Assembly: GCA_034520565.1 (NCBI GenBank)
Contig: JAXHNL010000002.1
Location: forward strand, 928,001 to 992,000
Direction of reading: 5' to 3'
Length of the DNA: 64,000 nucleotides
From: Halodesulfurarchaeum sp.
GTDB lineage: Archaea > Halobacteriota > Halobacteria > Halobacteriales > Halobacteriaceae
Shown piece by piece: positions 17,014 through 22,218 of the stretch. The notes below the pieces were generated by a model that saw nothing but the letters and a program-made list of their open reading frames with translations, was not told where the DNA came from and did not search any database. Each line of letters begins with the position of its first letter. The stretch's first letter is position 1. The translations under genes were made by a program, and so were the position numbers.

Positions 17014-17600
17014 GTGGTGGATTGCGTGCCGCTGGCGAGGGCGGCGGTGCCCGTGCGGGCGACTTCGTGTACGCCGAACTGTTCGAACGCCTCGATCGCG
17101 GCGTCGATCGCTGCTTCCGTGCCCGTCAATTCGACCGTGAGGATTCCGTCGTCGCATTGGAGGGTCTGCCCGTCGTACATCTCCGCGAGCGCGGCGACCC
17201 CTGCCGGGTCGTCGCCGTCGACCTTGATGAGTGCGAGTTCGCGCTCGACGGCTCCCCTGACTTCCCGGACCGACCAGGCGTGTACCTCCTTTCTGAGCTG
17301 CCGTTTGGCCTGCTCGATGCCCGGTTCGTCCTCCTCGACGACGATGGTCATGCGGGCTTTCGACTCGTCGATGGTCGGCCCGACGGTTAGACTCTCGATG
17401 TTGAGCTGTCGTCGCGCGAAGAGCCCGGACACGTTGGCCAGGACGCCGGGCTCGTGATCGACGAGCGCCGAGATCACGGCCCGCCGCTCCTCGAGTTCGG
17501 CCTCGGCCTCCGGGTCGATCCGGATCCCCTGGGCGTTCCGGCGGCCGGCGGGCATCTCCCGTTCGTCGGGAGCGGCCCCTTGCATCCGTTCTCCCGTCAT
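17010..17600 (-). CDS. ilvN: Acetolactate synthase small (regulatory) subunit
   Basis: ACT domain [26 protein letters not shown]; ERELALIKV; EVARTG. Confidence 0.93.
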
Positions 17601-19387
17601 AGGTGATCGGCCCCCAGTGCGAACCGCGCGTTGTTGCCACCGCTTGGCACCATCGGGTACACGTCCGCCACGGGATCGACGTGGAAGTCGATCACCGAGG
17701 GGCCGTCGTAGGCGAGTGCCTCGTCGATCGCGTCCGGCACCTCGTCATAGCCCATCACTCGCAGCCCCTGGGCCCCATAGGCCTCCGCCAGCGTCGCGAA
17801 GTCCGGGCCCCAGTCCCACTTGCTCTCGTAGCGCCGTTCGTCGTAGAAGGCGTCCTGCCACTGCCGGATCATCCCGACGTAGCTGTTGTTCAGGATGGCG
17901 ACGGTGATGTCGAGTTCCTCTCGCACCGCCGGCGCGATCGCCTGGCTGGTCATCAGGAAGGAACCGTCGCCCTCGAAGGCGATGACCTGCTTCTCGGGGG
18001 CGGCCAGTTTGGCCCCCACTGCAGCAGGAGCGCCATAGCCCATCGTTCCCAGCCCGTTCGAGGAGACCCAGGTCCGGGGCTCCGTGTAGGTCCAGTACTG
18101 GGCGGCCCACATCTGGTGTTGCCCGACGCCGGTGGTGACGATCGCGTCGTCGGCTGCGGCTTCGTTCATCGCTTCGACCACGAACTGCGGTTTCAGCGGC
18201 TGGTCCTGTGGCGTCTCGTAGCCCATCGGATACTCGGCTTTCCACGATTGAGTGCGGTCCCGCCACGCATCGGCCGGCGGTTCGGTCGGCATGGCCCCGT
18301 GTAACTGCTCGAGAACCGCCCCGGCGTCGCCGATGAGCGGGTACTCGGCGTGGATGTTCTTCGAAATCTCGGCCGGATCGATATCGACGTGGATGACTTC
18401 TGCTCCGGGTGCGAACGTCTCGATGCCGCCGGTCAACCGGTCGTCGAAGCGGGTGCCCACACCCAGCAGCACGTCGCAATGGCTCAACGCCATGTTGGCG
18501 TAGCCAGTCCCGTGCATGCCGCCCATCTCCATCGCGAGTGCGTGGTCCTCCGGGAAGGAGCCCAGGCCCGGCATGGTCGTGACGACCGGGATGCCGTACT
18601 CCATGGCGAATTCCCGGAGTTCCTCGCTCGCCTCGCCCTTGATCACGCCACCGCCGGAGAGGATGAGCGGTCGCTCGGCGTTCGCGAGTGCCTCGGCGGC
18701 CGCAGCAACCGTCTCGGAGTCGGCCTCTGGGCCCGGCACCTGATACGATTCGGGCGTGGTCGGCATTGACGGCTCGACGTCGGTTTCGCCCTGTGTCACG
18801 TTCTTGGGGAGATCCACCAGCGTCGGCCCCTGCCGTCCCTCCTTGGCCAGCGCCATGGCGGTTCCGACGTCGTCGCCGACGGAGTCGGGATTCGTGGCAA
18901 AGATGTTGGCCTTGGTGATCGGGGCAGTGATGCCCATCGTGTTCGTCTCCTGGAAGGCGTCGTTACCGACCATCTCCTGGGCGACCTGGCCGGTCAGCGA
19001 GACGACCGGGTCCGAATCCAGGTTGGCGTCGGCGATCCCCGTGACCAGGTTCGTCGCGCCCGGTCCCGAGGTGGTGATCGTTACCCCGGGATCGCCCGAG
19101 ACGATCCCGTAGGCGTCGGCCGCGTGGGACGCACCCTGTTCGTGGGCCATCGAGACGTGGTGGATGTCCGAATCGTGGAGGGCGTCGTAAACCGGCATGA
19201 TCGCCCCGCCCTGCACGCCGAAGGTTATCTCGACGTCGGCTTTCTCGAGGGCCGTGACGACCGAGTGGGCGCCGGTCGTCTGTTCCTCGTCTGCAGTCGT
19301 TTCACTCGTTTCACCTGTTTCGGCCGGCGAGTCCGCTGACTCCGCCGGCGGGTCGGTCGGTTCCGGTTTCGGTTGGGGTTTGCTCAT
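17597..19387 (-). CDS. ilvB: Acetolactate synthase large subunit
   Basis: [35 protein letters not shown], ThDP motif GDGSF...NN. Confidence 0.96.
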
Positions 19388-19824
19388 TGGTTTCCGTGGG
19401 CGTGATCGGTCAGTTGCGAATCGATACCCGCTGTCCCGTTCGGATGGACCCTGCTCGGGGCAATATCGGCCTGCCGAACGAGACGATCTGGAGAAGGTGT
19501 TACTGGGGGCCCGGGGCCCCTACGATCGCGATGCTGGCCGCACATGCCACGGAAATCGACTGCTGGCGAACGTGGGCCATTGTATCCCCATAGTGGGAAA
19601 CGAGTCGATTTATGCGTTCCGGTCGGTCCGGATCGTGGGTCCGCGTTAGGTCCGGATCGTGGGTCCGCGTTAGGTCCGGATCGTGGGTCCGCGTTAGGTC
19701 CGGATCGTGGGTCCGCGTTAGATTCGGATCGTGGCTCCACGTTAGGCGCGGACCGCAGTCTCGCGTTGGACCGTGGTCCTGCGTGTATTGGCGGGCTTGC
19801 GGGCCCGTTCCGCCGGTGGCTCAT
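19384..19824 (-). CDS. Putative 146-aa disordered ORF bridging leuA and ilvB, containing PNADPRSG repeats
   Basis: ATG overlaps the leuA stop (ATGA, 19824-19821) and its TGA overlaps the ilvB start (ATGA, 19387-19384); composition is Arg/Pro-rich and atypical. Confidence 0.3.
   Translation of the reverse strand: MSHRRNGPASPPIHAGPRSNARLRSAPNVEPRSESNADPRSGPNADPRSGPNADPRSGPNADPRSGPTGTHKSTRFPLWGYNGPRSPAVDFRGMCGQHRDRRGPGPPVTPSPDRLVRQADIAPSRVHPNGTAGIDSQLTDHAHGNQ
19500..19580 (-). CDS. Putative leader peptide MAHVRQQSISVACAASIAIVGAPGPQ upstream of ilvB
   Basis: ATG about 30 nt downstream of TATA-like GCATAAA (19615-19609); Ile-Ala-Ile-Val codons run directly into a GGGGCC-CCG-GGCCCC hairpin. Confidence 0.45.
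   Translation of the reverse strand: MAHVRQQSISVACAASIAIVGAPGPQ
19625..19768. repeat. 24-bp tandem repeat (VNTR) GGTCCGGATCGTGGGTCCGCGTTA
   Basis: Four perfect copies (19625-19720) plus two degenerate copies, with no spacers. Confidence 0.92.
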
Positions 19825-21041
19825 GCCTTGACCTCCGTCGAAGCGGCGGCTCGATCGACGCCGACGGCGGCCGCAAAGCGGTGGAGATCCTCGAGCGTGA
19901 TCGTGTGTTTCTCCGCGGCCCGGTTTTTGACCCGCTCGGTGATCTCCCCGACTTCCTCCTCGGTCGGGGCGTAGCCCGCCTCTTCGAGGTGTTCGCGGAC
20001 CGCGTTCTTGCCGGTGTGCTTGCCCAGGACGATCGCTCGCTGGGCACCGACCATTTCGGGGGTCATGATCCCCGGTTCGAAGGTGTCGGCGTTCTCGATC
20101 ACGCCGGCCGCGTGGATGCCGCTCTCGTGGGAGAAGGCGTTCTCCCCGACGATCGACTTGTTCGGCGGGATCGGCACGCCCGACTTCTCCTCGATGATCG
20201 CCGCGATCTCTGAGATTCGGGTCGTGTCGATGCCGGTGTCCACCCCGTAGATCGACTCCGCGGCCATGACGACCTCCTCGTAGGCGGCGTTGCCGGCCCG
20301 CTCGCCGATGCCGTTGACCGAGACCTGGGCCTGGTCGGCCCCGGCTTCGATGCCGGCGATGGCGTTCGCGGTCGCCATCCCGAAGTCGTCGTGCGTGTGC
20401 ACGTCGATCCGGGCGTCGGTGTGTTGGCCGACGAAGCCGATCAGGTCCGCGAACCGCGAGGGACTCGCGACCCCGGTGGTGTCCGGGATGTTGACCCAAT
20501 CGACGTCGACCTCGTCGACGGCCTCGAGGACGTCGGCCAGGTACTCCCGATCGGTACGCGTGGCGTCCATCGGGGAGAACATGACCTCGGCGTCGCTCGC
20601 CTTGGCCTGTTCGACGGCCGCGACCGAGCGCTCTTTTACCTCCTCGCGGTTGGAGTGCATGGAGTCCTCGATCTGGACGTCGCTGGTGCTCGCGAAGACG
20701 TGGATCATGTCCACGCCCGAGTCGATGGCGGCCTGCACGTCGGACTCGACCACCCGGGCGAGGCCCGCGACCGTCGTCTCCGTAAACTGCGTGATCTCCT
20801 GGATGGCCTCGAACTCCGCGTCGCTGTTGGCCGGGAACCCCGCCTCGATGACGTGGGTCCCCATCTCGTCCAGTACCGTGGCTATCTCTCGCTTGTCCGC
20901 CCTTGAAAAGGAGGTGCGCGGGGTCTGTTCGCCGTCACGTAGGGTCGTATCGAAGATCCGGACCGAGTCGAACTCGCTACGTGTAGCTAACGTGCCCTGG
21001 AAGAACTCGACCGCCCGAGCTTGCGCCGAGCGACTCCTCAC
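19821..21041 (-). CDS. leuA: LeuA-family 2-isopropylmalate/citramalate synthase, short form; start uncertain
   Basis: DTTLRDGEQ, HTHDD, GIGERAGN, AFSHESGIH; about 400 aa with no C-terminal regulatory domain; no in-frame ATG before the catalytic motif (GTG at 21041). Confidence 0.9.
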   Translation of the reverse strand: MRSRSAQARAVEFFQGTLATRSEFDSVRIFDTTLRDGEQTPRTSFSRADKREIATVLDEMGTHVIEAGFPANSDAEFEAIQEITQFTETTVAGLARVVESDVQAAIDSGVDMIHVFASTSDVQIEDSMHSNREEVKERSVAAVEQAKASDAEVMFSPMDATRTDREYLADVLEAVDEVDVDWVNIPDTTGVASPSRFADLIGFVGQHTDARIDVHTHDDFGMATANAIAGIEAGADQAQVSVNGIGERAGNAAYEEVVMAAESIYGVDTGIDTTRISEIAAIIEEKSGVPIPPNKSIVGENAFSHESGIHAAGVIENADTFEPGIMTPEMVGAQRAIVLGKHTGKNAVREHLEEAGYAPTEEEVGEITERVKNRAAEKHTITLEDLHRFAAAVGVDRAAASTEVKA

Positions 21042-21051
21042 TTCGTGTCAT
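20977..21051 (-). CDS. Promoter-proximal uORF MTRSEESLGASSGGRVLPGHVSYT overlapping the leuA 5' end out of frame
   Basis: ATG about 29 nt downstream of TATA-like CTTATCAA (21082-21075); leuA is in the +1 frame relative to it. Confidence 0.5.
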   Translation of the reverse strand: MTRSEESLGASSGGRVLPGHVSYT

Positions 21052-21297
21052 CAAGTACCTCGAACGTCTTGCCGTTGATAAGTCTTCCCTTCGTCGTCGG
21101 TTTCGGTGGTCGGTTGCTCGGGTTTGCGTTTGCGTCCGGTGTAACGGTGCGGCGTGTTCCAGACGGTTCGAGTCATGACACTCCCGGTTCCCGCTGGGGT
21201 CAGGCCCACGATCATTTTCTCCTCCGTGTGGACATTTTCCTCCGGGCGAGGAAGGGTACATTTTTCTCAGGGAGAAGCAAACGTCGCGTCGGAACCG

Positions 21298-22218
21298 ATG
21301 GATGAGGAGGCGTTGATTGACATCGGCCTGTTTCTCGCCTACGCCGTGCTCGGAGCGTCCTCCTTCGTCGGGGCGAAGGCCGGATTACCGTATTTCCCGC
21401 CACTCTTGTTCGGTGCACTCAGGCTCGACCTGGGTGCCGCGTTGCTCGTCGGCTACGTGTATGCGACCCAGTCCTACTGGACACCCAGGACCCGAACGGA
21501 CGTCGTTTCCACGCTGATTACCGGCGTTTTTACCGTCGGCTTGGCGATTCCGTTGTTGTATCTTGGCCAACAGTACGTCACCAGCGGCGTCGGGTCGGTC
21601 GTGTACAGCTTCACTCCCATTTTGACGGGCGTGGCTGCAATCGGACTGTTACCCGGCGTGAAATTCGGTTTCACCGACGCAATCGGCTTTGTTTTCGGAC
21701 TGGTTGGGGTAGCGGTCGTCGCCGGTGTCGACCCGGGGAAATTGGTCACCAGTGACGTGCGCGGGGTCGCACTTATCTTCGGAAGTGCCTTCGTTTTCGC
21801 ACTCGGGAACGTGGTCGTCCAGCGCATTCGGCCGTCGTTACCGAGCCTCACGCTCACCGCCTGGGGGCTGGTCCTCGCCGCGCTCACCAGTCACGCGATG
21901 AGTCTCGCGACAGGTGAATCACTCACAGCAATCCAGTGGACGACACAGGCGTGGCTCGCCCTCATGGTCACGGGCGTTTTTGCGAGTGCGCTTTACTACG
22001 CCATCCACTTCGAGCTGGTGAGTCACATCGGGTCGACGCGGACGAATCTCGTGTACTACCTGATGCCGATCTCGGCGACGATCGCTGGATGGCTGCTGCT
22101 TGCAGAGCAGATCACACTGCCGACGATCACCGGTTTCGGATTGATCTTCGTCGGGTTTGTCTCACTAGAATACCAGTCGTTGCGCGCGGCGGTCCGCCGG
22201 GAATCGGCCGCTGACTGA
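21298..22218 (+). CDS. DMT/EamA-family transporter
   Basis: Ten TM helices in two EamA repeats (PPLLFGALR; LMPISA..GWLLLAE). Confidence 0.88.
   Translation: MDEEALIDIGLFLAYAVLGASSFVGAKAGLPYFPPLLFGALRLDLGAALLVGYVYATQSYWTPRTRTDVVSTLITGVFTVGLAIPLLYLGQQYVTSGVGSVVYSFTPILTGVAAIGLLPGVKFGFTDAIGFVFGLVGVAVVAGVDPGKLVTSDVRGVALIFGSAFVFALGNVVVQRIRPSLPSLTLTAWGLVLAALTSHAMSLATGESLTAIQWTTQAWLALMVTGVFASALYYAIHFELVSHIGSTRTNLVYYLMPISATIAGWLLLAEQITLPTITGFGLIFVGFVSLEYQSLRAAVRRESAAD

Follow-up and report, generated by a model that had tools for sequence, protein, structure and literature searches.

How can leuA be translated when the ATG that stands behind its promoter-like sequence is out of frame with the enzyme? 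This question is raised by a 64,000-nucleotide stretch of DNA (the window) from the archaeon Halodesulfurarchaeum sp. (GenBank assembly GCA_034520565.1, contig JAXHNL010000002.1, positions 928,001 to 992,000), whose minus strand encodes a short-type 2-isopropylmalate synthase, LeuA. The haloarchaeal leuA2 (HVO_1510) ortholog set has already been reported to lack consistent canonical starts, in a study whose main text is based on 16 curated haloarchaeal genomes (Pfeiffer and Dyall-Smith, 2021, Genes 12:963, PMC8305020). An in-frame CTG, or an out-of-frame ATG combined with slippage, were the options given there, a dependence on leucine was speculated, and the choice was left open; according to the same paper, such leuA genes have been called pseudogenes. 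Here, based on comparison of the window with related loci throughout its archaeal phylum, we suggest that leuA is probably expressed via a programmed +1 frameshift that doubles as a leucine sensor.

The out-of-frame leader of leuA

Coordinates are those of the window, and the features of leuA all lie on the minus strand. The proposed initiation codon, ATG at 21049..21051, opens a frame-0 leader open reading frame (ORF) of 24 codons at 20977..21051, whose product, if no shift occurred, would be MTRSEESLGASSGGRVLPGHVSYT followed by a stop. The leader reads ATG ACA CGA AGT GAG GAG TCG CTC GGC GCA AGC TCG GGC GGT CGA and goes on as GTT CTT CCA GGG CAC GTT AGC TAC ACG TAG, the stop TAG being located at 20979-20977. 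The LeuA frame is +1 relative to this ORF (GTC GAG TTC TTC CAG GGC ACG = VEFFQGT) and is shut just upstream by TGA TGA at 21053-21048. Its sole ATG, GTG or TTG ahead of the DTTLRDGEQ motif is a GTG at 21039..21041, 10 nt past the ATG. A sequence-only reading of the window had described an ATG out of frame with leuA behind a TATA-like sequence, a LeuA frame displaced by exactly +1 and this single GTG, all of which are confirmed on the minus strand. Conceptual read-through with a single four-base step (GTTC read as V) gives an open product of 409 residues, MTRSEESLGASSGGRV followed by FQGTL..., the LeuA frame after the shift occupying 19821..21005.

The enzyme matches the Pfam domains HMGL-like (PF00682, 1e-79), with the RDGEQ motif, and HCS_D2 (post-HMGL, PF22617, 2.9e-24). 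The protein stops at about residue 406 and has no Pfam match to LeuA_dimer, the regulatory domain of leucine feedback, in agreement with the sequence-only reading. Its scores are below the NCBIfam cut-offs (450.9 vs 517 for NF002085, 407.7 vs 484.75 for TIGR02090); despite this, it groups in the LeuA-type clade with a support of 100/100 in the tree described below.

The 5' ends were compared in 30 loci out of 41 related genomes and in the best 80 of 527 relatives in named assemblies, which together yield 100 distinct 5' regions from Halobacteria and Marine Group IV (MG-IV). The layout was defined as a frame-0 [NTT][Leu codon] pair inside an ATG-started ORF, with LeuA in +1. It is present in 99 of the 100 loci, and the only one that does not qualify (L003) is truncated by its contig end; this occurrence in Halobacteria/MG-IV is far above chance. 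The LeuA frame reads G TTC TTC in 96/100 loci, and the four exceptions keep the layout as GTT CTC G, GTT CTT G or, in two MG-IV genomes, CTT CTT C. The frame-0 ATG is found 12-21 codons 5' of the site in 99/99 usable loci, its context in the Halobacteria loci being TAC(A/G)ATG, and the frame-0 stop follows 7-12 codons past GTT in relatives. Thus an alignment of 5' regions, proposed as a check by the sequence-only reading, shows a constant out-of-frame ATG as well as near-invariant nucleotides around the site.

The shift site GUU CUU C is located at 21000..21006 and comprises Val 21006-21004, which we place in the ribosomal P site, and Leu 21003-21001, which we place in the A site, the +1 codons being UUC UUC. 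Among the 99 loci, the putative P codon is GTT in 97 and CTT in 2, while the putative A codon is CTT in 98 and CTC in 1. GTT and CTT are near-invariant at the site although they are minor codons in this genome, where they encode 12.6% of Val and 9.4% of Leu residues, respectively. The codon ahead of NUU is CGA in 96 loci and CGG in 3, which is synonymous (Arg) in frame 0 and gives E/G in the LeuA frame; two codons ahead, GGT, GAT, GAC, GAA, AAT and GAG encode G/D/E/N in frame 0 and V/I/T/N in the LeuA frame. On the 3' side, CAG, GAG, AAG and others encode Q/E/K in the LeuA frame and P/R/Q in frame 0. Since the substitution patterns flip there, the frame switch is pinned to GUU CUU C (21006-21000), and the stretch CGAGTTCTTC.AGGGCAC is near-invariant at the nucleotide level. 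A programmed +1 frameshift at GUU CUU C is therefore considered very likely on comparative grounds. Four codons past the shift lies the rare leucine codon UUA (20988..20990), which also makes a TAG in the third frame; TTA occupies this position in 57/99 loci and accounts for 1.6% of the Leu codons in this genome.

Leucine and isoleucine codons in two paralogous leaders

Could the leader be a peculiarity of Halobacteria and MG-IV? The wider sampling covered 201 genomes of the window's own phylum, in the delimitation used by the genome tool, and the 5' ends of 88 LeuA loci from other families were compared. The layout is present in 56 of them, namely every locus in the families labelled f12 (2/2), f18 (8/8), f19 (4/4), f21 (4/4), f22 (6/6), f23 (3/3), f25 (12/12), f27 (2/2), f28 (2/2), f31 (3/3), f34 (4/4), f35 (2/2) and f37 (4/4). 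As a control, 32 loci of f20, f24, f26, f29, f32 and f33 have an ordinary ATG 6-19 codons before DTT, and the [NUU][Leu] layout occurs in 2/32 of them, which is chance-like, both with ATT as the P codon. The gene mcrA was found in f18, f19, f22, f25, f27, f28, f34, f35 and f37 and was not found in f21, f23, f31 or Halobacteria; therefore, the layout spans lineages with and without mcrA.

Typical leaders in these families are M..RDRFLQ.-stop (GAT CGY TTT TTA CAG), ..YCLLHR-stop, ..GHLLF.. and MGECVLQRK-stop, and in two f25 leaders the frame-0 stop immediately follows the Leu codon (MRDRFL-stop). The P codon of the LeuA leaders is GTT, CTT or TTT only, with C or T next. The following frame-0 codon is always leucine, whether CTT, CTC, CTA, TTA or TTG, and the overlapping residue of the LeuA frame is F, Y, S, L or W. 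The Arg codon ahead of NUU may be CGT, CGC or CGA, again synonymous in frame 0 and giving V/A/D in the LeuA frame.

The same arrangement, with another amino acid, is found in front of a paralogue. The CimA-type gene of this genome (L201, G000:C1:99321-100781, outside the window) has an open frame of 510 aa, 487 aa of which were matched. Its leader, ATG ACC ACG GAT CGA TTT ATT GCG ... TAG (L201:1461-1496), encodes MTTDRFIAGAN-stop, and its enzyme frame opens at the TGA within ATGA. Among 80 CimA loci (L204-L282 among them), 37 from Halobacteria and 43 from other families, an Ile-codon leader is present in 64. Halobacteria contribute 36/37 loci, of which 15 have a leader of the ..RFI.. type and 21 one of the ..G(R/C)EI.. 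type that follows a hairpin; the other families contribute 28/43, with leaders such as MRDRFIC-stop, VRDRFI-stop, M.AWDRFIG-stop and MRDCIIRK... Seven of these 28 leaders start with GTG and the start of one (L269) is unclear; in four CimA leaders the frame-0 stop comes immediately after the sensing codon.

The two gene types were separated by a maximum-likelihood tree of 27 full-length proteins, in which the CimA-type and LeuA-type clades are distinct with a support of 100/100; an Ile codon is carried by 9/9 leaders in the CimA clade and a Leu codon by 13/13 leaders in the LeuA clade. NCBIfam had failed as a separator, both types matching NF002085, and identity over the first 60 residues was clear for CimA-type loci and ambiguous for LeuA-type loci outside Halobacteria, which the full-length tree settled. 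Disruption of Haloferax HVO_0644, a member of the first clade, leads to isoleucine auxotrophy, and HVO_1510 has been assigned to LeuA (PMC8305020). A hungry-codon sensor with the sensing codon in the A site is supported chiefly by the match of that codon to the end product of the pathway, and the Leu/Ile swap between paralogous leaders makes the sensing hypothesis directly testable. It may be added that in f37 the LeuA-type and CimA-type genes are divergent and 230-290 nt apart (G152:C1:1598575-1601431 and G167:C1:1967079-1969939), with a Leu leader on the LeuA-type gene in both genomes.

A possible mechanism and its alternatives

Where would transcription and translation start? A TATA-like box, CTTATCAA, is located at 21075..21082, that is, -31..-24 from the A of ATG 21051, and an AT-rich block (AT 0.82-0.97) occurs at -33..-27 from the out-of-frame ATG in 98 Halobacteria loci. 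By the usual spacing of haloarchaeal TATA boxes, a block at this distance would set the transcript start at the ATG. Consequently, we infer a leaderless transcript that starts at the frame-0 ATG.

Two elements upstream of the shift site could stimulate the shift. The first is a G-rich tract, CGGGCGGUCG, at 21008..21017, which is complementary to the 3' tail of 16S rRNA (predicted duplex -8.7 kcal/mol); the 16S rRNA of this genome ends GGAUCACCUCCU. Duplex energies were computed for the tail GGAUCACCUCCU against 10-nt mRNA windows, and the mean minimum falls in windows ending 1-2 nt before the P codon, with -8.9 kcal/mol for LeuA of other families and -8.6 kcal/mol for LeuA of Halobacteria. CimA of other families has its minimum at the same place (-7.3 kcal/mol), values elsewhere are about -1 to -4 kcal/mol, and the minimum is weaker in the Halobacteria CimA sets. 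The tract, complementary to the anti-Shine-Dalgarno (anti-SD) sequence and ending 2 nt 5' of the P codon, is thus a candidate stimulator of the prfB kind. The shared core is (G)AGGGAUYGN-NUU-codon, in which the triplet ahead of NUU may encode either Arg (CGY) or Cys (UGY), and this alternation argues for a constraint at the RNA level.

The second element is a hairpin within the leader (21010..21035, from folding) with the arms CGCUCG 21032-21027 and CGGGCG 21017-21012, which would act as an additional stimulator in Halobacteria. When 32 nt were folded, 91/91 distinct Halobacteria sequences reached -9.9 kcal/mol or better, with a mean of -14.7 kcal/mol and a median z of -2.1. The stems vary yet stay complementary, for example, CGCUCG/CGAGCG, CCUCUGAC/GUCAGAGG and CGUCGG/CCGGCG, and in Halobacteria the 3' arm finishes a few nucleotides ahead of GUU. 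Because the hairpins occupy three registers with differing loop lengths, the sequences were folded one by one; RNAalifold gave no consensus structure for the ungapped 91-sequence alignment, and the complementarity is judged from the separate folds, not from a formal covariation statistic. No Rfam family was matched between 20800 and 21300 at E values up to 10.

Taken together, the following course of events could be proposed. Transcription would begin at or next to ATG 21051, and a ribosome would initiate there in frame 0, and read 15 codons through the hairpin until its P site holds GUU (Val16) and its A site faces CUU (Leu). With an ample supply of charged tRNA-Leu(GAG), CUU would be decoded and translation would stop at TAG 20977, yielding a 24-residue peptide and no LeuA. 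If the charged tRNA were scarce, the A site would stay empty, the peptidyl-tRNA-Val would move one base onto UUC, and Phe-tRNA would read the next UUC, which leads into the LeuA frame and to the 409-residue enzyme (...GGRV joined to FQGTL...). Genes for tRNA-Val(GAC), tRNA-Leu(GAG) and tRNA-Phe(GAA) are present in this genome. The Leu codon is placed in the A site, with NUU slipping, because the codons UUA, UUG, CUA and CUC found elsewhere cannot re-pair at +1; for the P codons, UUU and CUU re-pair well at +1, and GUU keeps two of three pairs. On this basis, a role of the leuA leader in leucine sensing seems probable. With somewhat less confidence, we favour the view that the leader is one of the ancient "frameshift attenuators" in the window's archaeal phylum, and we hold to the same degree that in these an anti-SD tract, a U-rich P codon and one hungry codon would meter ribosomes into the enzyme frame.

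Several points weigh against this scheme. After the slip, tRNA-Val(GAC) on UUC would have a first-position mismatch, and the near-invariant C at 21000 is explained more simply by a slip of tRNA-Leu from CUU to UUC. P-site re-pairing would also be poor in some CimA leaders (GAA to AAA; UGU/AUU in f18), so slippage may not be the universal step, and decoding out of frame in the A site without slippage is possible. LeuA itself contains leucine, therefore only partial starvation could be sensed. The window has an in-frame GTG 10 nt past the ATG, and an in-frame ATG is kept in f22, f23, f31 (at -8/-9), f37 (upstream) and one f27 genome (at the site); since several families with the layout keep such an ATG, the shift is not obligatory everywhere. 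Finally, the labels LeuA and CimA are based on the tree and on PMC8305020, not on an assay.

The first two of these points belong to the alternative that survives best, in which the frameshift is kept and its mechanics are changed. After CUU is decoded, tRNA-Leu(GAG) in the P site would move onto UUC during the wait at the rare CCA codon in the A site, giving ..GGRVL joined to QGTL...; the shift would then respond to tRNA-Pro(UGG) instead of leucine, or be constitutive. In favour of this model, three pairs (G.U, A-U, G-C) are kept when CUU is exchanged for UUC, better than for GUU to UUC, and the C after CUU is conserved in 97/99 loci. In 96/99 loci a minor codon ending in A comes next in frame 0 (CCA 79, CGA 10, CAA 5, GCA 2; the others are CGC 3), CCA being 12.9% of the Pro codons in this genome, and L051 (CTC G) and L082 (CTT G), the two exceptions among Halobacteria, would both retain the product RVLQGT. 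However, CUC G in L051 is unable to re-pair. In other families the codon may be UUA, UUG or CUA followed by C, U or G, whose tRNAs cannot re-pair either, and yet it is still always leucine. Moreover, a stop stands directly after the sensing codon in two LeuA and four CimA leaders, and the replacement of Leu by Ile in CimA leaders is not predicted. We therefore consider this model unlikely. The sequence-only reading had likewise treated CUU as a P-site slip codon after the example of prfB and Ty1, a part that the pattern across lineages does not favour; its proposal of a frameshift at GUU-CUU-C with sensing of branched-chain amino acids has gained comparative support.

Could LeuA simply start in frame, without any recoding? 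GTG 21041 would then be the start codon, or relatives would use an in-frame near-cognate such as CTG or ATC, and the ATG ORF would be incidental or an ordinary regulatory upstream ORF. GTG 21041 is indeed in frame and gives a product of 406 aa, its position is GTG in 4 and CTG in 3 of seven non-edge loci of the same genus, and an in-frame CTG is one of the two options of PMC8305020. The 48 database relatives matching the predicted N-terminus are also all annotated in the LeuA frame, and the frame-0 N-terminal part is in none of them. Their annotated starts, however, lie anywhere from 3 to 56 residues before FF, which bears out the remark in the sequence-only reading that starts near EFFQGTL are uncertain. 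GTG 21041 is not kept beyond the genus, and no positionally conserved in-frame start or near-cognate (ATC, CTG and ACG included) was found among 98 loci: the best candidates are ATC at -2 (40/98), CTG at -8 (22/98) and GTG at -7 (7/98), compared with 98/98 for the frame-0 ATG. Any ATG, GTG or TTG in frame before DTTLRDGEQ is missing in 40/100 Halobacteria/MG-IV loci, and a canonical in-frame start is missing in 22/56 site-bearing loci of other families. Consequently, of the in-frame ATG in relatives that the sequence-only reading had named as evidence to the contrary, there is none in many Halobacteria/MG-IV loci, and there is one in f22, f23, f31, f37 and one f27 genome. In some loci the LeuA frame is open for just 5-9 codons ahead of the site, a distance that falls to 3 codons in f18 and f25. 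In addition, the GTG/CTG position encodes S/T (AGT/ACT) in frame 0, the changes 5' of the site are synonymous in frame 0 but alter residues of the LeuA frame, and the TATA block lines up with the frame-0 ATG. An ordinary start is thus judged quite improbable.

As for a pseudogene or a sequencing or assembly indel, the metagenome assembly is of modest depth (run X1, word depth ~5.7), but this explanation is hardly credible, since contigs of runs X3 and X5, which belong to an independent study, span 20989-21040 and are identical across the site, without an indel, the same frame relation is found in 155/188 LeuA loci from many assemblies, complete genomes among them, and the downstream frame is intact and conserved. 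The indel artefact that the sequence-only reading had itself raised is excluded by these contigs. Just downstream of the site, at 20981-20985, one contig each of X3 and X5 (from a relative) carries a compensating +1/-1 indel pair that keeps the LeuA frame overall.

Some other candidates were rejected. Transcriptional slippage does not suit GTTCTTC, which has no homopolymer, the T-run elsewhere being only T6. For transcription attenuation, the leader overlaps the gene, the single hairpin lies inside the leader, and a consensus scan gave no terminator-like site there. Reinitiation after an upstream ORF would lack a start, as no LeuA-frame ATG, GTG or TTG occurs between TAG 20977 and DTTLRDGEQ, and the same holds in most relatives. 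A genome-wide scan for similar layouts returned 180 mostly spurious matches, among which leuA ranked 6th, and was uninformative on further members.

Genomic context and comparison with known systems

The ilvB gene is located downstream of leuA (17597-19387), and the spacer of about 430 nt between the leuA stop and the ilvB start holds a 24-nt tandem repeat, GGTCCGGATCGTGGGTCCGCGTTA, with 5.1 copies and 94% matches (19625-19746). On the other side, a gene of the EamA transporter family (21154-22218, plus strand, Pfam 1.4e-32) is divergent from leuA, and its possible start region is about 100 nt from the leuA TATA-like box.

The sequence-only reading had further proposed that recoding or upstream-ORF control replaces allosteric feedback. 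The regulatory domain is missing here, as noted above; however, the replacement is not general, since LeuA-type matches outside the order, with open frames of ~510-520 aa, share the leader. Elsewhere in the same genome, L203 (G000:C2:869532-869786, minus strand, outside the window) is an open frame of 154 aa with a weak match to NF002085 (E 7.7e-4), confined to the C-terminal regulatory part of the model (positions 408-496). This frame possibly encodes a free-standing LeuA_dimer-like protein, in a genome where LeuA itself is without that domain.

If leucine sensing by the leader is true, it would be a naturally used +1 frameshift at a sense ("hungry") codon that reports the supply of one amino acid, so that the enzyme is made only when leucine is short. 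The annotation problem, that is, the scattered LeuA starts of Halobacteria, would be explained as well. To our knowledge, no amino-acid-responsive recoding switch has been described in archaea, and none emerged from our literature searches.

How does the proposed switch compare with earlier work and with known systems? Searches for leuA recoding gave nothing on topic beyond the leuA2 issue of PMC8305020, which concerns the same gene family. The assignment of the shift site, the hairpin, the anti-SD tract, the occurrence outside Halobacteria and the Ile leader of the HVO_0644 type are not mentioned in the parts of that paper considered here, and the matching start problem of CimA apparently is not either.

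Among recoded genes, the closest likeness is to prfB. As in that gene, a short ORF in frame 0 stands close to the 5' end, and a tract of the Shine-Dalgarno kind, which for leuA was computed from the duplex with the 16S tail, precedes the P codon by a few nucleotides. The P codon is again NUU and may re-pair at +1, and the A-site codon would be a slow one, decoded by a factor that is tied to the product or pathway of the gene itself. Unlike in prfB, the A-site codon would be a sense codon (Leu, or Ile in CimA) and not a stop, so that the molecule sensed would be a charged tRNA; the host is an archaeon, the mRNA is probably leaderless, and a hairpin is added upstream in Halobacteria.

The +1 shift is also reminiscent of hungry-codon shifting and of Ty1 (CUU AGG C), where it is favoured when the A-site aminoacyl-tRNA is limiting (Atkins et al., 2016, PMC5009743). 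Those cases, in contrast to leuA, arise as errors when cells are starved in the laboratory or rely on a tRNA that is always rare. This review calls the natural use of hungry-codon shifts unclear, and in the part of it covered here isopropylmalate, leuA and leucine are not mentioned.

Finally, the leader resembles the attenuation of bacterial leu and ilv operons, in which a leader ORF contains codons of the end product and the speed of the ribosome sets the expression of the biosynthetic genes. For leuA, however, the ribosome would switch frames on one and the same mRNA instead of directing a choice between terminator and antiterminator, there is one sensing codon and not a run of them, and in many lineages the enzyme lacks its own initiation site. 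The leuA leader would then be a translational counterpart, in archaea, of bacterial attenuation.

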